From a bacterium (GTDB lineage Bacteria > Patescibacteriota > Saccharimonadia > Saccharimonadales > Saccharimonadaceae): DNA of 64,000 bases. The DNA lies in contig JAUIII010000001.1 in NCBI GenBank assembly GCA_030431855.1, positions 25,089-89,088 on the forward strand, given 5' to 3'. Positions within the stretch are counted from its first letter, which is position 1; every line of letters starts with the position of its first letter. This document shows, piece after piece, positions 1,036 through 62,991 of this stretch. A program made the position numbers and the translations under genes. The notes beneath the pieces were generated by a model that saw nothing but the letters and a program-made list of their open reading frames with translations, did not search any database and was not told where the DNA came from.

Positions 1036-1203
1036 AGCTGTGAATGTTAGTCGAAAGAGCCGAGGTATCGGGGTAGAATCGACCGTGTACGCTACGATAA
1101 AGCGAACAAACAAGTGCTAAGAAGTGTCTTCTTGGAAACTGGATGGTACCTCCGCCGAAAAGTGGATCCAGTGGCTAAGAGGCTATTTTTATTGGAGAAC
1201 AGA
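1036..1203 (+). promoter_or_regulatory. Candidate T-box (tRNA-Ile sensing) leader, possibly acting on translation
   Basis: The core lies at 1138..1172. It has helix ACUGGA/UCCAGU, a 7-nt bulge UGGUACC identical to the T-box consensus bulge, and an inner helix UCCGC/GUGGA. The 3' strand can alternatively pair over the GGAG SD at 1194..1197. A possible AUC specifier lies at 1078..1080. Confidence 0.45.
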
Positions 1204-1464
1204 ATGAACGACGCAGACCCAACACGATACGCACCAGTTGAAACTGAGCAGCCAGCAATGGATTTCAGACGTATTAATGATGTAATGCGGGCACACGGTA
1301 TCGACACGCTTGATGAAGGGAATCTGCGTCGTATACACGAAAACAGTGGCCCAGATGGCGTCAAGGCAGTGGTTGTGTGGCATATGAAAGAAGAAAATAT
1401 TGCTGATGTTGATGGTGTGGGGACAGAGTGTTTTGATGACTGGGAAGAAGGAGTGTGGCAATGA
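1204..1464 (+). CDS. Hypothetical acidic 86-aa protein (upstream ORF of the ileS unit)
   Basis: The ATG has a GGAG 6 nt upstream. Its TGA overlaps the ileS ATG (ATGA at 1461..1464). I recognised no motif. The track ORF starting at GTG 1114 would run through the structured leader, so I prefer the ATG at 1204. Confidence 0.45.
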   Translation: MNDADPTRYAPVETEQPAMDFRRINDVMRAHGIDTLDEGNLRRIHENSGPDGVKAVVVWHMKEENIADVDGVGTECFDDWEEGVWQ

Positions 1465-4367
1465 AGTTCAAACACGGTACACGCCGGCGCGCAATCGAGT
1501 ACGAAAAAGACTGGGTACAGCGCTGGAAGCAAGACAAAACTTTTGAAAAATCGGTAGAGAATCGACCGAAGGATAATTCGTATGTGTTTTACGACGGGCC
1601 GCCATTTATATCTGGCGTGCCGCACCACGGTACACTGCTTTCTAGCATTGTAAAAGACGCCGTGCCGCGCTACCAAACCATGAAAGGCAAGCGAGTAGAG
1701 CGTGTGTGGGGTTGGGATTGCCATGGGCTGCCAGCAGAGCGGTACACTGAGAAAAAACTGGGTATTCATAGCCGCGAAGAAGTGCTGGAATATGGCATAG
1801 AAAAATACATTGTGGCGTGCCGCAACAATATGGTGCAAACCAGCAGCGAATGGGAAGATGTAGTCGACCGCGTAGGCCGCTGGGTGGATTTTAAGGGCGC
1901 CTATAAAACCATGGACAAAGAATACATGGAAAGCGTGTGGTGGGCGTTTAAAGAGTTGTACGACAAGCAGAAGATATACGAAGGCGAAAAGGTGCTGATG
2001 TACTGTACGCTGGATGCTACGCCGCTGAGCAAGGCCGAGGTGACTATGGACGCTGGGGCGTATCAGGACGTGACCGACCCGAGTGTGTATGTGAAGTTTA
2101 AGCTTAAGTCTGAGCCGAAGGCAATGGGCGACGAAAAGGGTGACGAATCAAAACCGCTATACATGCTTGCGTGGACTACGACGCCGTGGACGCTGCCTGC
2201 TAATACCGCACTCGCTATTGATCCTGATGCTATGTATAACGAATATATTCTAGACGAAGAAAGAGTAATTATTGCTGCAGATCAAGCTGTTGAATTCTCA
2301 GTACTTCACGAAAGGGATGGCTTAAAGTACGGCGAGAATCCAAAATTGGTAAGATGCTTCTTTGCCAAGGAGTTGATAGGCTTGTCGTACGAACCGCTGC
2401 TAGGAATCGATCGAGGCCCTGAGGCACACAAGATATGGGGCGCGGACTATGTCACTGCAGACACAGAAGGACATGGCACCGGTATTGTCCACCTCGCACC
2501 AACCTATGGAGAAGAGGACTTCGAACTCGCCAAAGAAAAAGGCTTTCCGGCGGTTCACGTTATCGATGAAAACGGAGTGTTCTCAGAAAGCGACTGGGAA
2601 GGCAAAAATGTTTGGGAAATAAACAAACAGATTGCTAAAGATCTAAAAGAGCGTGGCATCGTGTGGAAGATAGACTATATTCGCCACAGCTACCCGCACT
2701 GTCACCGCTGTGGCACTAAGCTAATGTACCGCGCGCATCCGAGCTGGTTTATGGACATCAATGGCCAGCGCGAATTGATGCTCGAGAAAAACGAGCCAAT
2801 TAATTGGTTCCCGCCGCATGTAAAGCACGGTCGGTTCGAGAAGACGGTTGAGCAAGCGCCGGACTGGAATATCTCTCGTGACCGTTTCTGGGCGACAGCT
2901 ATGCCAGTATGGAAGAGTGAAAGTGGCAAGGTAAAGGTTGTCGGCAGTTACGCAGAACTGAAAGAACTTTCTGGTGTTGAGCTAGAAGATTACCACCGCC
3001 CGTGGATTGACGACGTGAAGTTTACTATCGATGGCGAGGAATATACACGCATCGATAAAGTTATGGACAGCTGGTTCGAAGCAGGTAGCATGCCGTTTGC
3101 GCAGTTCCACTATCCGTTTGAAAATAAGGAAAAATTTGAAGATAATTTCCCAGGTGATTTTATTGTTGAATACATTGGTCAGGTACGTGCATGGTTTTAC
3201 TATATGCACGCTATGAATGTCGCACTATTTGGTGAAAACAGTTTCAAAAACGTGATTGTAACTGGAAATGTGGCTGGCAATGACGGCCGCAAGATGAGTA
3301 AAAGCTATGGCAACTACACCGACCCGAATGAGCTGATGGACAAATTTAGTGCGGACTCACTGCGATTCTTGCTGCTGAGTTCGCCACTGTTAAACGGCGA
3401 AGATTTTGCCCTGCAAGACAAAGAAGTGGGCGATGTTGCCAGAAAACTGAGCATGATATGGAACATGTACGACTTTTTCACGATGTATGCGGAAGTGGAT
3501 GGCTGGGAGTTCACCGGCGAAGTAAAAGATCCGCTGAGTGTGCTGACAAATCCGCTGGATATTTGGGTTGTTTCACGCGTGCATCAACTGGTTGCTGAGG
3601 TTGAAAAACACATGGATGTTTACGACATACCAAACGCACTAGAGCCAATATTGCCGTTCCTAGACGACGCTAGCAACTGGTATGTGCGCCGCAGCCGCCG
3701 CCGTTTCTGGAAGTCGGAAGACGATGGCGACAAAGCCGATGCCTACAAAACTCTACATTATGTTTTGGTCCGCCTAGCCTATGTTCTAGCGCCATTCGCG
3801 CCATTCTTGGCGGAAGAATTGCACCACAATTTAACTGGCGACACAGAATCAGTTCATTTGAAAGACTGGATGCCAGCTGGAAGTGTAAACCATGCGGTGA
3901 TGACAGAGATGGACTCACTGCGAGACTATGTGAATCAAGGCTTAAGTTTGCGTGCGAAAGCAGGGCTAAAAGTACGTCAACCACTGGCGAGTGTATCAGT
4001 ACCGACTAAGGGTGAAGTGGTAGATTTTGAATCGGTATTAATCGAAGAGTTAAATGTAAAAACGATTGAATTTGGAAAAGAAATAGCAATTGACGAAACT
4101 ATAACACCGGAACTTAAACGCGAAGGTCTGATGCGTGAGGTTATTCGTCATGTACAGTCTGCTCGCAAAAAGGCAGGCTTGAACATTGACGATAGGATTG
4201 TGCTCAGCTTGCAAACACATTCAGCAGATCTCGCTCAGGCTATTACAGAGCACCAAGAGACTATTCATGCTGAAACCTTGGCTGGCGATGCAAAGGAAAA
4301 TGGTGGATATAGCGAAACAGTAAACGTTGAAGGCGACGAGCTAACGATTCACCTACAGAAAGCTTAG
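1461..4367 (+). CDS. ileS: Isoleucyl-tRNA synthetase, type 2 (eukaryote-like) form
   Basis: The N-terminus YVFYDGPPFISGVPHHGTLL aligns with the type-2 IleRS FFDGPPFATGxPHYGH block. WGWDCHGLPAE and KMSKS (RKMSKSYGN) are present. AAGGAG lies 7 nt upstream of the ATG at 1461. Confidence 0.95.
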   Translation: MKFKHGTRRRAIEYEKDWVQRWKQDKTFEKSVENRPKDNSYVFYDGPPFISGVPHHGTLLSSIVKDAVPRYQTMKGKRVERVWGWDCHGLPAERYTEKKLGIHSREEVLEYGIEKYIVACRNNMVQTSSEWEDVVDRVGRWVDFKGAYKTMDKEYMESVWWAFKELYDKQKIYEGEKVLMYCTLDATPLSKAEVTMDAGAYQDVTDPSVYVKFKLKSEPKAMGDEKGDESKPLYMLAWTTTPWTLPANTALAIDPDAMYNEYILDEERVIIAADQAVEFSVLHERDGLKYGENPKLVRCFFAKELIGLSYEPLLGIDRGPEAHKIWGADYVTADTEGHGTGIVHLAPTYGEEDFELAKEKGFPAVHVIDENGVFSESDWEGKNVWEINKQIAKDLKERGIVWKIDYIRHSYPHCHRCGTKLMYRAHPSWFMDINGQRELMLEKNEPINWFPPHVKHGRFEKTVEQAPDWNISRDRFWATAMPVWKSESGKVKVVGSYAELKELSGVELEDYHRPWIDDVKFTIDGEEYTRIDKVMDSWFEAGSMPFAQFHYPFENKEKFEDNFPGDFIVEYIGQVRAWFYYMHAMNVALFGENSFKNVIVTGNVAGNDGRKMSKSYGNYTDPNELMDKFSADSLRFLLLSSPLLNGEDFALQDKEVGDVARKLSMIWNMYDFFTMYAEVDGWEFTGEVKDPLSVLTNPLDIWVVSRVHQLVAEVEKHMDVYDIPNALEPILPFLDDASNWYVRRSRRRFWKSEDDGDKADAYKTLHYVLVRLAYVLAPFAPFLAEELHHNLTGDTESVHLKDWMPAGSVNHAVMTEMDSLRDYVNQGLSLRAKAGLKVRQPLASVSVPTKGEVVDFESVLIEELNVKTIEFGKEIAIDETITPELKREGLMREVIRHVQSARKKAGLNIDDRIVLSLQTHSADLAQAITEHQETIHAETLAGDAKENGGYSETVNVEGDELTIHLQKA

Positions 4368-25787: not shown

Positions 25788-26489
25788 ATGGCTACTTCAG
25801 TAGACATGAAGGCTCTATTAGAAGCCGGTGTTCATTTCGGACACAAAACCAGTCGTTGGCACCCAAAAATGGCGCCATACATTCACAGCAAGCGACAAGA
25901 TTCGCATATTATTAACCTAGAAAAGACAGTCGAAGGTCTAGAAGCGGCACTGCCATTCCTCACAAAAACTGCGGCGAGTGGTAAAAAAGTACTGTTTGTT
26001 GGTACCAAAAAGCAGCACAAAGACATTGTAAAAGCTGCTGCAGAGTCTGCTGGCCAGCCATACGTCACCGAACGCTGGATTGGTGGTATGCTGACCAACG
26101 TTTCGACTATCACTAGCCAGATCAAGAAGCTGAAAGACCTTGAAAAGCGAATGGCGAGTGGCGACCTAGAAAAGCGCTACAACAAACTAGAAGTGCAGCG
26201 CTTCCAGGAAGAAATCGATAGCCTAAACGAAAAATACAGCGGTATCAAAGACCTCAGCGGTATGCCAGGTGCGGTTGTAGTGGTAGATACACTCAGCGAT
26301 GTGAACGCTGTTCGCGAAGCAAAAAACCTAGGTATTCCAGTGGTAGGCGTGGTAGATACAAACGCAGACCCAAGCGTAATCGACTACGTAGTGCCTGGTA
26401 ACGATGACGCAATCAAAGGTACACAGCTATTGCTGGACTACTTTGTAAGTGCAGTGAAATCTGGTCTTAACAAAGAACAATCTAAATAA
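25788..26489 (+). CDS. rpsB: 30S ribosomal protein S2
   Basis: LLEAGVHFGHKTSRWHPKM is the S2 signature. GGAGAAGGA SD lies upstream of the ATG at 25788. Confidence 0.95.
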   Translation: MATSVDMKALLEAGVHFGHKTSRWHPKMAPYIHSKRQDSHIINLEKTVEGLEAALPFLTKTAASGKKVLFVGTKKQHKDIVKAAAESAGQPYVTERWIGGMLTNVSTITSQIKKLKDLEKRMASGDLEKRYNKLEVQRFQEEIDSLNEKYSGIKDLSGMPGAVVVVDTLSDVNAVREAKNLGIPVVGVVDTNADPSVIDYVVPGNDDAIKGTQLLLDYFVSAVKSGLNKEQSK

Positions 26490-40108: not shown

Positions 40109-41290
40109 ATGAAAATAAAATATGGTGCGACAGCGTTTCTTACTGCATGTTTGGTGGTGGGAGTCGTTTTTGTAGCAAATGTATCTGCAGGCGCATTGTA
40201 TCTTGCAAATGACAAGGGCAATGCCACGGTAGAGAAAAATCAAGTCGTGAACGGCGCTGCGTATCTTGCAGGCAACACTGTCACGGTAGACGGTACTGTA
40301 AACGGCGACCTATATTGTGCAGGTAATTCCGTGGCCGTACGGGGTACGGTTTCAGGAGATGTATTGTGCGCAGGTAACGATGTGAGTATTGATGGCGTTG
40401 TAAAGGGTGACGTACGCGTTGCTGGTGCAACCGTGACACTTGGAGGAGAAGTAACTGGGAACGCGACTGTTGCAGGCTCTAATGTCACCGCAAGTTCGTC
40501 GCTCAAGCTTGGCCGCGACTTAACTGGAGGCGCAAGTACGCTAAAAATCGATGGCGAGATTGGACGTGACATGACTGCTGGTACCAGCGCGCTTGTCGTC
40601 AATGGTACGGTAGGCCGCAACGTGGAAAGTGGTTTTGGTAGCGTTGCCTTCGGTAATGAGGCAAAAGTTGGCGGCGATTTCAGCTACAGTGCACAAAAAG
40701 AAGCATCAGTTCCGACCAACGTTGTGGCTGGTGAAACTAAGTTTACGATGGTTGAGGACGGCGGCCAGGCAAGTGTCGGCCAAGTATCTACGTTTTGGGG
40801 TGTTGGCATGGCGATAGCGATTGCTGTCGTGGCTCTGCTTGGCGCAGTAGTGATGCCTCGTCAGGTTCATGCGACGGCCAGTCCAACGTGGGGTAAGTTT
40901 GCCGCCGCGCTGACGCTTGGTTTTGTAGCCGTGTTCATGACACCAGTCGCCACGCTACTGTTCTTCGTAACTGGTATTGGTGCGATTGCTGGCTACGCCT
41001 TAGTACTCATGTGGCTACTGCTCATGGCGTTATCACCAGTATTCGTGGCTTACTTTATTGGCTCACGCGTGTACGGCTCTAATAGCCAAAACATCTTAGT
41101 TCGTTCGTTGGCGGGTGCATTTGTGCTCGTGATTTTACTCCTCATCCCAGGAGTAAACGTAGCAAGCTTCCTTGTAATGTTATTCGCTGGTGTGGGAATG
41201 GTGCTGATGCAGGTGCCGAAACTATATCATGGCGATGCGTATCAGGCATCTAAGAAACCTGTTGTTAAGGCCAAGAAGAAAACTGCATGA
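40109..41290 (+). CDS. Membrane protein with an exported bactofilin-like (polymer-forming cytoskeletal, beta-helix repeat) domain and 4-5 C-terminal TM helices
   Basis: Signal peptide, then repeats of the type GNTVTVDGTVNGDLYCAGNSVAVRGTVSGDVLCAGNDVSIDGVVKGDVRVAG. AAAGGGGGA SD lies upstream of the ATG at 40109. Confidence 0.7.
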   Translation: MKIKYGATAFLTACLVVGVVFVANVSAGALYLANDKGNATVEKNQVVNGAAYLAGNTVTVDGTVNGDLYCAGNSVAVRGTVSGDVLCAGNDVSIDGVVKGDVRVAGATVTLGGEVTGNATVAGSNVTASSSLKLGRDLTGGASTLKIDGEIGRDMTAGTSALVVNGTVGRNVESGFGSVAFGNEAKVGGDFSYSAQKEASVPTNVVAGETKFTMVEDGGQASVGQVSTFWGVGMAIAIAVVALLGAVVMPRQVHATASPTWGKFAAALTLGFVAVFMTPVATLLFFVTGIGAIAGYALVLMWLLLMALSPVFVAYFIGSRVYGSNSQNILVRSLAGAFVLVILLLIPGVNVASFLVMLFAGVGMVLMQVPKLYHGDAYQASKKPVVKAKKKTA

Positions 41291-49891: not shown

Positions 49892-51190
49892 ATGAAAATC
49901 GCTATCGCAGGGTTTGGGCAAGAAGGCAGAGCGAACTACCAGTACTGGAACACGTCCGAGAACAGTGTCACTATTGTCGATGAGCGTGAAGAGCTTGATG
50001 CCCTGACAGAGGGTGCCGCAACCATTTTAGGTGATGGAGCTTTTTCAAAACTAGCGGATTTTGACATGGTGGTGCGTACGGCTAGTTTACGACCGGACAA
50101 GATCGTGACAAATGGTAAAGTATGGAGTTCAATCAATGAATTCTTCGACAAATGTCCTGCTCCAATCATCGGCGTGACTGGTACCAAGGGCAAGGGCACT
50201 ACCTGCAGTTTAATTACGAGTATTCTGCGTGCCGCAGGTAGAACCGCACATCTCGTTGGAAACATTGGTGTGCCAGCGCTGGGTGAACTCGAAAAGATTG
50301 AACCCAGTGATATTGTGGTATTCGAGCTCAGTAGTTTCCAGCTGTGGGATATTCAAAAGTCGCCACAAACAGCGGTTATATTAAAAATCGAGCAAGACCA
50401 TATGGATGTACATCATGGCATCGATGAATACATTACCGCTAAGGCGCAGATTGCGCGGTTTATGACTGCTGACGAGACAGTGTATTACCATCCGACTTTC
50501 GCGTACTCTCGTCAAGCCGCCACAATGTACAACAAGGCGATAGCGAAACGATATGGCGTCAAAGACGAAGGTGTGGCGTATGTAGAAGATGGCTGGTTCA
50601 TGAAGGCTGATGAACGCATTTGTGAAACAAGTGTGATGCAGATACCTGGTGAACACAATGTTGAGAATGCCTGCGCGGCCATTTCCGCTGCATACAAATA
50701 TACGCAAAGTCACGATGCAATAAAGCAAGGCTTGGTTAGCTTTACTGGCTTGCCACACCGCTTGAAATTCATTCGTGAAGTAGGTGGGGTACAATACTTC
50801 GATGACAGTTATTCATCTGCACCGTCTGCTGCCATCGCGGCGATACGCGCCCATAAAGAACCCCAGGTCTTGCTACTAGGCGGCTACGACAAGGGCGCAT
50901 CATTTGAAGAACTTGCCGCAGAGATCATGAAAAGTACCGTAAAGCACGTTGTGATTTATGGTCAGACAAAACAGGCAATACGTGATGCATTAGTAGGCGC
51001 AGGATTAACCGATGAGACGAGCTTCACAATGCTAGACACGACAAACTTTGAAGAAATCGTGCAGTGCGCCAGTAATAAAGCCAGTGCGGGCGATGTTGTG
51101 GTGCTGAGCCCGGCATGTGCCAGCTTTGATATGTTCAAAAACTTTACTCAGCGTGGCGAGCAGTTCATTGCAATCGTAAACAGTTTATGA
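49892..51190 (+). CDS. murD: Mur ligase of the MurD type (UDP-N-acetylmuramoyl-L-alanine--glutamate ligase), possibly a MurD2-like variant
   Basis: P-loop GVTGTKGKGTT and Mur ligase middle and C-terminal domains. The N-terminal dinucleotide-fold motif reads IAGFGQEG rather than the common GLGxSG. Confidence 0.85.
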   Translation: MKIAIAGFGQEGRANYQYWNTSENSVTIVDEREELDALTEGAATILGDGAFSKLADFDMVVRTASLRPDKIVTNGKVWSSINEFFDKCPAPIIGVTGTKGKGTTCSLITSILRAAGRTAHLVGNIGVPALGELEKIEPSDIVVFELSSFQLWDIQKSPQTAVILKIEQDHMDVHHGIDEYITAKAQIARFMTADETVYYHPTFAYSRQAATMYNKAIAKRYGVKDEGVAYVEDGWFMKADERICETSVMQIPGEHNVENACAAISAAYKYTQSHDAIKQGLVSFTGLPHRLKFIREVGGVQYFDDSYSSAPSAAIAAIRAHKEPQVLLLGGYDKGASFEELAAEIMKSTVKHVVIYGQTKQAIRDALVGAGLTDETSFTMLDTTNFEEIVQCASNKASAGDVVVLSPACASFDMFKNFTQRGEQFIAIVNSL

Positions 51191-61836: not shown

Positions 61837-62991
61837 CTATACTTTTCTGAGCACCAACAGCTCGCGGGCCACTACCTGGTCTTCCCGGTAGTACAGCAAG
61901 TCGGTCGCCTTTGCATGACGAAGCAAGATTTGTTGATAGCCAAGCGTGCCTAGGCTATTTACCAGGGGTAAATGTGTCAGCCGACCAGATTTGTCACGCC
62001 AAGCGGGTACGGCTAAACAAAGCGGCGTACCGCTTTCTAGTTGTGGGCCGATATTTTGTAGAAACTTTGAAATGATTTCGTTACAATTACGCTGCACCTG
62101 CGCCAGTTTATCTGGTGATGGCGGAGCAGAGAATGGTTGGCCGAGATAAGTTTCGGCCACAACTGCGTCGATAGGCGGCTGCCATTTGGTTTCGATGGCG
62201 TCACCATGGTGGATTGTTACGTTGACATCTACGCCAAATTTGTCTGCCAGCCACTTCATATTTGCGGTAGAATAATCGACCATCTTTTCTGATAGGTCAG
62301 TGCCGTAGACATCGAAGCCAAGCAAGGCTGCTTCCTGCAGTACAACACCAGTGCCACAGAATGGGTCTAGTACTCTGCCTTTTGTAGCTCCTGACATGTT
62401 TATCATCATCAATGCCAGTTTCGGTGGTAGCATACCCACGAATGCATCGGTTTTTGGTCTGGCTTGGTCCCGTGCGGCGTATGCATCAATATTTTGCACA
62501 CCAGAAACTTGTCCAAGCAGCGTGGTAGATCCACTGCGCACAAAGACGAGCTCCATACCGAGCTCACTTGTCAGGCTGTTGTGGAGCGTCTGTGCGCTCG
62601 AGAGACTAGGCGAGGTGTTTGGCACAACCCTCACAGATCGCCCCGACTTTTTAATCGCCGTCTTCAAGCTTAGTGCATTTGCCTGTATCTTAGCGAGCGG
62701 CATGTCGAGCCCGTACAAGCTAACGCCAAGTTTGATTTTTCCCTCTGGCCGCATGGCAGCGTGCTTTGGCAGTTCGCGGCGGCAATAATCGAACACTTTT
62801 TGTGGGTTCGTTGTGTCGAGCTCGGTCAAAAGGGTGGCGACTTTTATGGTACCACCAAGTGTATCAATGTCGACTTCCGCATCTACTACCGCAAAGTCGC
62901 TGCCAACTAGCTGCAAGGCATCAGCACCATATTTCATTTCTAGCTCTGCAATACCAAGCTGTGGCTGCCGACCAAGTAAACATATATTCAT
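61837..62991 (-). CDS. Class I SAM-dependent methyltransferase (Trm11/RlmL-like, putative RNA methyltransferase)
   Basis: SAM motif I LDPFCGTGVVLQEAALLGFDVYGTDL, with an N-terminal non-catalytic domain. TATACT lies 7 nt upstream of the ATG. Confidence 0.65.
   Translation of the reverse strand: MNICLLGRQPQLGIAELEMKYGADALQLVGSDFAVVDAEVDIDTLGGTIKVATLLTELDTTNPQKVFDYCRRELPKHAAMRPEGKIKLGVSLYGLDMPLAKIQANALSLKTAIKKSGRSVRVVPNTSPSLSSAQTLHNSLTSELGMELVFVRSGSTTLLGQVSGVQNIDAYAARDQARPKTDAFVGMLPPKLALMMINMSGATKGRVLDPFCGTGVVLQEAALLGFDVYGTDLSEKMVDYSTANMKWLADKFGVDVNVTIHHGDAIETKWQPPIDAVVAETYLGQPFSAPPSPDKLAQVQRNCNEIISKFLQNIGPQLESGTPLCLAVPAWRDKSGRLTHLPLVNSLGTLGYQQILLRHAKATDLLYYREDQVVARELLVLRKV

Follow-up and report, generated by a model that had tools for sequence, protein, structure and literature searches.

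We analysed the leader of ileS, the gene for isoleucyl-tRNA synthetase, in a 64,000-nt stretch of DNA (the window) from contig JAUIII010000001.1 of a Saccharimonadaceae bacterium, whose genome assembly comprises 830 kb in 28 contigs. Positions 1027-1190 of the window are almost certainly a T-box for tRNA-Ile. As judged from the sequence and its relatives, this is a new form of T-box, in which a short Stem I goes together with a terminator enclosing the antiterminator. The best explanation of the leader as a whole is probably a T-box that senses tRNA-Ile, acts by terminating transcription and switches by strand exchange at Stem III. A first-pass annotation of the same DNA had proposed a T-box antiterminator sensing tRNA-Ile upstream of the ileS unit, and this proposal is upheld by covariation among relatives and by a specifier that tracks the regulated synthetase. 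All features described below lie on the + strand of the window.

Conservation and covariation

The ileS gene was located in 40 relatives and the DNA upstream of it was examined. In about 20 of 28 relatives ileS is preceded by TGGTACC together with covarying A1 and A2, the two helices of the antiterminator. The heptamer stands 56-80 nt from the start codon in these relatives, or 270-600 nt where an open reading frame (ORF) is interposed. A1 occurs in compensatory variants, namely ACUGGA/UCCAGU, ACCGGA/UCCGGU, GCCAGA/UCUGGC, UUGAGA/UCUCAG and AUCAGA/UCUGAU. Furthermore, the conserved block in the relatives reaches about 120 nt upstream of the feature described in the first-pass annotation, and it contains every T-box module in order.

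Pairing was scored in two alignments. The MAFFT alignment of 20 leaders (alignment A2) had 89.4% of cells paired and 24 of 34 pairs double-changed; none of 500 shuffles was as high, and slid controls gave 34-43%. A model-based alignment of 58 leaders (alignment A3) had 92.4% of cells paired and 27 of 32 pairs double-changed, with slid controls at 30-45%; this alignment was fitted to the structure, so its values are biased towards the structure. The pseudoknot columns of the MAFFT alignment were misaligned in about half of the rows (54-62% paired), and a register-free per-sequence search was used there instead. The first-pass annotation had put forward an alignment of orthologous leaders as a check, and in that alignment the bulge and the helices are conserved with compensatory changes.

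The heptamer was counted separately. TGGTACC occurs 14 times in the window where shuffles lead one to expect 4.6, and the heptamer alone is therefore uninformative, in keeping with the earlier caution that several copies should arise by chance. Examples lie at 26000-26007, 40579-40586, 50179-50186 and 62847-62854; four are the palindrome TGGTACCA, which is counted on both strands. The whole element, with compensatory changes kept in orthologous ileS leaders, is by this comparison far beyond chance.

A covariance model, R1, was built from 20 ileS leaders. Within the genome of origin its single match is the element in the window (142.8 bits, E 1.5e-31). In a sample of the order, R1 matches 130 of 151 genomes from about 70 families, nearly always with one copy per genome; in a sample of the phylum it matches 46 of 151 genomes, some of which carry two or three copies. 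A pattern scan of named genomes matched almost only Candidatus Saccharibacteria/Saccharimonadales, plus a few other Patescibacteria. Two genomes each have two ileS genes, every one with its own AUC T-box (G087, loci L080 and C36; G166, loci L081 and C14). In two others a pair of model matches stands in tandem about 30 nt apart (G134:C5:42207-42519 and G059:C41:2135-2450), and these may be tandem T-boxes.

T-boxes are seen as belonging to Firmicutes and Actinobacteria, apart from scattered examples in other groups. In the papers covered by full-text searches, T-boxes were linked neither to Saccharibacteria or Patescibacteria nor to the candidate phyla radiation. With the present family, an entire order of ultra-small, host-dependent bacteria has one copy of a T-box in front of ileS in most of its genomes.

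Modules of the leader

Stem I is a 4-bp hairpin at 1027-1041, formed by ACAG (1027-1030) with CUGU (1038-1041) around a 7-nt apical loop, UUAUCAG (1031-1037); a long Stem I with a distal tRNA-elbow platform is absent. In both the 20-leader and the 58-leader sets 100% of its cells are paired, with double changes in three of the four pairs. The apical loop holds the specifier AUC (1033-1035), an Ile codon complementary to the anticodon GAU, followed by a conserved purine, A1036, so that the specifier module spans 1033-1036. The first-pass annotation had instead assigned Stem I to a hairpin at 1050-1083, with AUC at 1078-1080 as specifier. This hairpin corresponds to Stem II, whose lower helix takes up U1079 and C1080, and the triplet is not conserved, the relatives having AAC, ACC or AUU-type triplets at this place.

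Stem II (1050-1083) consists of a lower helix (1050-1054 with 1079-1083) and an upper helix (1060-1063 with 1068-1071). Between them lie the strands of an S-turn, GAG (1057-1059) opposite GGUA (1072-1075), for which the family consensus is GAA and AGUA, a loop-E signature. The lower helix is 93-96% paired over the two leader sets, and all five of its pairs show double changes. GUAGA is invariant in the leader alignment, and the Rfam T-box model places the AGUA of the orthologues in its own Stem II.

The Stem IIA/B pseudoknot follows directly as a 21-nt module (1084-1104). Its IIA helix pairs CGU (1084-1086) with ACG (1094-1096) and its IIB helix pairs CGCU (1090-1093) with AGCG (1101-1104). 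With the register-free search, 28 of 58 leaders show a strict 3+4 bp H-type pseudoknot, compared with 3.2 expected in shuffles. IIB covaries, with CGCU/AGCG, CCGG/CCGG, AAGC/GCUU, GACA/UGUC and others among its forms.

Stem III is introduced by the purine string AAGUG (1112-1116), an RRRxG motif that Rfam aligns to the 'AAGuG' of its model and whose AAG is invariant in the leader alignment. In a constrained fold, Stem III itself (1117-1135) pairs strand X (CUAAGAAG, 1117-1124) with strand X' (CUUCUUGG, 1128-1135) across the loop UGU, and is followed by a conserved AA (1136-1137). It is 93-98% paired, with double changes, in the 58 leaders.

The antiterminator occupies 1138-1172. Helix A1 pairs ACUGGA with UCCAGU (1138-1143/1167-1172), the bulge is UGGUACC (1144-1150), and helix A2 pairs UCCGC with GUGGA around a 6-nt loop (1151-1155/1162-1166). 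In the 58 leaders A1 is 100% paired with five of six pairs double-changed, and A2 is 97% paired with double changes in four of four. A check of the sequence placed A1, the bulge, A2, the Shine-Dalgarno GGAG (1194-1197) and the ATG (1204) exactly where the first-pass annotation had them, and a recount likewise gave its 12 matches out of 18 to the classic T-box sequence.

Two further parts complete the element. X'' (1175-1185) is the 3' strand of the helix at the base of the predicted terminator; in the minimum free energy (MFE) fold its segment CUAAGAGG (1175-1182) has X' (1128-1135) as its partner, and the helix goes on with the pairs U1184-G1126 and A1185-U1125. A run of five U (1186-1190) abuts this helix; three of its T's are invariant in the 20-leader alignment, and most of the 58 leaders close with 4-6 U.

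Published work describes a discriminator motif, 5'-RRRxG-Stem III-AA-3', and a 21-nt IIA/B pseudoknot (PMC7583486). The modules found here match the published anatomy, since an S-turn in Stem II, the 21-nt pseudoknot, the RRRxG-Stem III-AA arrangement and a specifier in an apical loop are all present (PMC7583486; TBDB preprint).

Relation to the Rfam T-box model

Searches with Rfam returned no T-box match on 800-1400 (E<=10), on the whole window (gathering score) or on the whole genome (E<=1). On the 184-nt stretch 1012-1195 the T-box model RF00230 scored 24.5 bits (E 6e-4), with a gathering score of 93. Thus the RF00230 search proposed at first pass does find the element on this short stretch, at a score under the gathering score, and has no match on larger stretches. 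Annotation misses the element because RF00230 scores it under the gathering score. Within the window sequence the 3' half (pseudoknot, AAGUG, Stem III and T-box) was aligned confidently, and the fit of the 5' half to the model's long Stem I was forced.

RF00230 also aligned several orthologues end to end, with 76 distal Stem I positions deleted, at 30-40 bits (E 2e-5 to 5e-3); the orthologue scores ranged from 25.7 to 39.5 bits. This end-to-end alignment makes the link to T-boxes independent of model R1. Since Rfam thresholds miss the family, riboswitch censuses of these genomes undercount regulation.

Specifier and cognate tRNA

All rows of the 20-leader alignment have AUCA, and 57 of the 58 leaders have AUC. 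The single exception, L069, precedes valS; on reading by eye, its true Stem I has GUC followed by A. The downstream gene encodes IleRS in all ileS-type leaders tested. Similarly, the loop triplet and its following A track the synthetase in other Patescibacteria: GUC stands before valS (L079, L077, L078, L073 and L076), GAC before aspS (L087, L075 and L086) and AUC before ileS (L074, L080 and L081). This agreement between codon and synthetase is, on comparative grounds, the strongest functional evidence short of experiments. Two other leaders of this group were noted. L072 carries AAC, an Asn codon, before a bacterial-type aspS, which would fit sensing of tRNA-Asn in a non-discriminating AspRS pathway. 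L082 has the same short-Stem-I design before thrS, and its specifier could not be read.

The tRNA-Ile(GAU) genes of a same-genus genome (G008) and a same-order genome (G027) both end in A73-CCA, which fits UGGU in the bulge. The first-pass annotation had paired UGGU with a discriminator A, and the tRNA of the same-genus genome is consistent with this. In four of the 58 leaders (L041, L027, L051 and L052) the bulge is UGGAACC. The genome of L041 (G169) has a tRNA-Ile(GAU), at L208:1494-1570, with discriminator A73 despite the UGGA bulge; since UGGA here faces A73, the fourth pair between bulge and tRNA in L041 is not Watson-Crick.

These observations bear on whether the element senses tRNA at all. 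It might instead be a constitutive attenuator or a protein-binding lookalike of a T-box, and Rfam scores far under the gathering score, together with a heptamer that is common in the window, would suit such an element. However, all T-box modules stand in the right order with covariation, the specifier triplet agrees with the regulated synthetase from gene to gene, and the Rfam model aligns the orthologues end to end. We therefore regard an element that is not a tRNA sensor as highly improbable.

Terminator and output

The first-pass annotation had stated that no terminator hairpin follows the antiterminator. In the MFE fold of the window, A1 is extended by pairing of 1128-1135 with 1175-1182 and by two more pairs (1125-1126 with 1184-1185), and the five U of 1186-1190 lie directly 3' of this helix. 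The same arrangement recurs among the relatives. From the purine string to the U-run, nearly every leader folds as one long hairpin whose helix ends at 4-6 U, and in 54 of 58 leaders, the window included, the MFE fold retains A1 inside the helix that reaches the U-run. The U-run is directly 3' of the covarying helix in all 20 of the first homologues and in nearly all of the 58 leaders. The X':X'' helix is 86-91% paired and covaries in the 58 leaders, although X'' was modelled as unpaired in the covariance model. At pair 227-347 of this helix AU occurs 15 times, CG 11 and UG 10, and at pair 228-346 CG occurs 21 times, UA 13 and UG 10. Neither inspection by eye nor folding revealed in the window a terminator of the canonical kind, made of the A1 and A2 3' strands.

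Energies favour the long hairpin. In the window the antiterminator form is predicted at -19.7 kcal/mol, and the terminator at -28.3 kcal/mol with the U-run and -24.0 kcal/mol without it. The means over 58 leaders are -20.6 kcal/mol for the antiterminator and -31.9 kcal/mol for the terminator with the U-run; without the U-run the terminator is favoured by 7.7 +/- 3.3 kcal/mol. Folding of both conformers had been put forward as a check by the first-pass annotation; two alternative forms were predicted, and the sequestrator pairing that it proposed is not in the MFE fold. Taking helix, U-run and energies as modelled, the output is quite probably transcription termination.

The first-pass annotation had favoured translational control. 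In a translational T-box, whether alone or besides termination, the 3' strand of A1 (UCCAGUGG, 1167-1174) would pair with AUUGGA (1191-1196) and hide the Shine-Dalgarno sequence. The decoding module is of the short-Stem-I type that is translational in Actinobacteria, the UCC of A1 is complementary to the Shine-Dalgarno GGA, the isolated segment 1167-1197 can fold in this way at -7.6 kcal/mol, and the pyrimidine-rich X' strand is also anti-Shine-Dalgarno-like. However, pairing of 1167-1174 with 1191-1196 is not part of the MFE fold of the leader, and it must open the 6-bp, G+C-richer A1, which the predicted OFF hairpin keeps. Furthermore, among the 20 leaders the Shine-Dalgarno sequence, which is 3-15 nt beyond the U-run in surroundings that differ in sequence, lacks a consistent partner and is predicted to be unpaired with a probability of 0.23-0.94. 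The relatives show a U-run after a covarying helix and no conserved Shine-Dalgarno sequestrator, and control of translation would leave this conserved U-run unexplained. Translational control is thus unlikely as the output of the element, and a secondary effect on translation is possible.

A proposed switch at Stem III

X'' (1175-1182) is a near-copy of X (1117-1124), and each is complementary to X' (1128-1135). Comparison of the leaders shows that two mutually exclusive helices are maintained on the shared strand X', since Stem III and X':X'' both covary, and that the U-run follows the helix predicted to be the more stable. A mechanism can be modelled on this arrangement. During transcription Stem III (X:X') would form first and provide a working discriminator. 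Stem I would offer AUC and A to the anticodon, and UGGU could bind uncharged tRNA-Ile(GAU) by pairing to its ACCA end. Once made, X'' would displace X and extend A1 downwards, giving an intrinsic terminator at the U-run (1186-1190). In the absence of uncharged tRNA the stabler long hairpin would form and transcription would stop. Uncharged tRNA-Ile, held by specifier-anticodon and UGGU-ACCA pairing, would stabilise Stem III and the purine latch; X'' could then not invade and would stay single-stranded, and the polymerase would pass the U-run. Read-through would lead into an 86-codon ORF and then ileS.

We consider the chance that switching proceeds by this Stem III strand exchange to be about even. 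The strand-exchange logic is not described in the T-box reviews consulted. More tentatively, and with slightly less than an even chance, we propose a normal mode across the family in Saccharibacteria and other Patescibacteria, in which the OFF state keeps A1, the bulge and A2, X and X'' compete for 1128-1135, and tRNA favours X.

Termination could also use another OFF structure. A mini-hairpin of 1173-1176 with 1181-1184 might terminate transcription, or tRNA might act as a steric wedge in the long hairpin with no exchange at Stem III. The 4-bp GGCU/GGCU hairpin is predicted just before A1185 and the U-run, and two leaders (L029 and L066) have no Stem III yet retain the outer helix and the U-run. 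The mini-hairpin is however weak, with two G-U pairs, and is not conserved, and in most members Stem III and X':X'' covary on a shared strand, which points to exchange. Termination through such a structure appears improbable to us.

Several observations weigh against a tRNA-Ile T-box that terminates transcription by exchange at Stem III. All RF00230 scores are far under the gathering score. The closing pair of A2 in the window, U1151-A1166, is not the G-U wobble described as an aminoacyl sensor; across the 58 leaders this pair is GU in 25, UA in 12, GC in 11 and AU in 4. At the base of Stem I, the position of a possible K-turn reads UA...GA in the window, and relatives have GA...GA flanking Stem I. 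The assembly contains neither a tRNA-Ile(GAU) nor an rRNA operon, and the tRNA of relatives was used in its place. In the textbook account the terminator takes its 5' strand from the 3' strands of A1 and A2 (PMC7583486). The OFF hairpin predicted here leaves A1, the bulge and A2 intact, so this A1/A2-consuming logic does not apply. That tRNA would block the X':X'' helix is inferred from published work in which tRNA binding requires Stem III: Stem III has been called indispensable, and an antiterminator lacking it does not bind tRNA appreciably (PMC7583486). Among the 58 leaders, L022 alone has a canonical terminator competing for the 3' strand of A1, and in L029 and L066, which lack Stem III, the partner of the terminator strand is the RRRxG purine string. 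For these three leaders' sake, one mechanism may not fit every member.

The ileS locus

The first-pass annotation had described a noncoding leader of about 200 nt before the ileS unit. The gap exists and measures 243 nt (961-1203), between a DoxX-like ORF that ends at 960 and the 86-codon ORF; the element within it begins at 1027, and both this start and the specifier (1033-1035) lie upstream of 1036, where the earlier feature began. The DoxX-like gene, the upstream neighbour of the leader, closes with a hairpin, AAUAGAGGC/GCCUCUAUU (980-1005), followed by a U-rich tail. On reading the sequence 3' of this terminator hairpin we noted a candidate -10 box, TATATT (1009-1014). A promoter scan gave no call at 1009-1014, and no recognisable -35 is present there. 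If TATATT serves as a -10 box, transcription would start near 1020, just 5' of Stem I. The scan did report a promoter-like TCGAAA-17-TAGAAT at 1051-1079, which we rejected as it sits within the conserved Stem II.

For the first regulated ORF the Shine-Dalgarno sequence is GGAG (1194-1197), outside the terminator hairpin, and the ATG is at 1204. The regulated unit begins with this 86-codon ORF (1204-1464), whose TGA overlaps the ATG of ileS. The 86-aa product has no Pfam or PHROG match, and among the loci searched it is kept only in the closest relative (87% identity). The ileS gene (1461-4367) encodes an isoleucyl-tRNA synthetase of 968 aa with a DUF5915 C-terminus, identified by NCBIfam TIGR00392 (773 bits, cut-off 621) and by Pfam matches. 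Its nucleotide identity to the nearest named loci is 72-78%.

In other genomes the slot between T-box and ileS is filled by unrelated ORFs (loci L034, L035, L038, L044, L049, L055 and L059). These encode a GNAT acetyltransferase, an S-adenosylmethionine (SAM) methyltransferase, a T5orf172 protein, an EcoRI-type adenine methylase, an inositol monophosphatase, a SET-domain protein and a HAD-GNAT fusion. This slot resembles a hot spot of insertion that puts varied genes under tRNA-Ile control.

Comparison with known T-boxes

The closest likeness is to the actinobacterial ileS T-boxes with a short Stem I, as the first-pass annotation had recognised. This class is known from Mycobacterium tuberculosis, M. 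smegmatis and Nocardia farcinica (Sherwood et al. 2015, via PMC7583486) and corresponds to the 'translational Ile' class of TBDB. As these sources describe it, the class shares with our element the regulated gene, ileS, and the presentation of AUC and a purine by a short Stem I, which holds them in its apical loop and lacks an elbow-binding platform. They also give the class a Stem II S-turn, a 21-nt IIA/B pseudoknot, a purine-flanked Stem III and an antiterminator or antisequestrator with a UGGN bulge. The element described here differs in its host, which belongs to the Saccharibacteria (Patescibacteria), and the two were likened through published descriptions rather than sequence. The translational Ile model has been applied only to Actinobacteria (TBDB preprint). 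The two also differ in output, which here is a hairpin with a U-run, indicative of transcription termination, and in the actinobacterial class a Shine-Dalgarno sequestrator. Furthermore, the predicted OFF hairpin here retains A1 and A2 and uses the 3' strand of Stem III.

The family thus unites the minimal decoding module of translational actinobacterial T-boxes with a transcription terminator, and this terminator appears to be wired through Stem III and not through helix A1. If confirmed, this would add to the known routes from tRNA binding to a genetic decision, and that step could be studied in a compact model of about 165 nt.

With the classical transcriptional T-boxes (RF00230; Bacillus subtilis tyrS and glyQS) the element shares the two-point reading of tRNA, by specifier-anticodon and UGGN-NCCA pairing, as well as the RRRxG-Stem III-AA discriminator and an intrinsic terminator with a U-tract downstream. 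Its OFF form is predicted to be the stabler one by roughly 8-11 kcal/mol, which is comparable to TBDB values. In contrast to the classical elements, the element here has no long Stem I, AG bulge, distal-loop platform or specifier internal loop, and RF00230 gives 24-40 bits against the gathering score of 93. Finally, whereas the classical T-box builds the 5' strand of its terminator from the 3' strands of A1 and A2, in the form described here A1 and A2 are predicted to remain inside the terminator.

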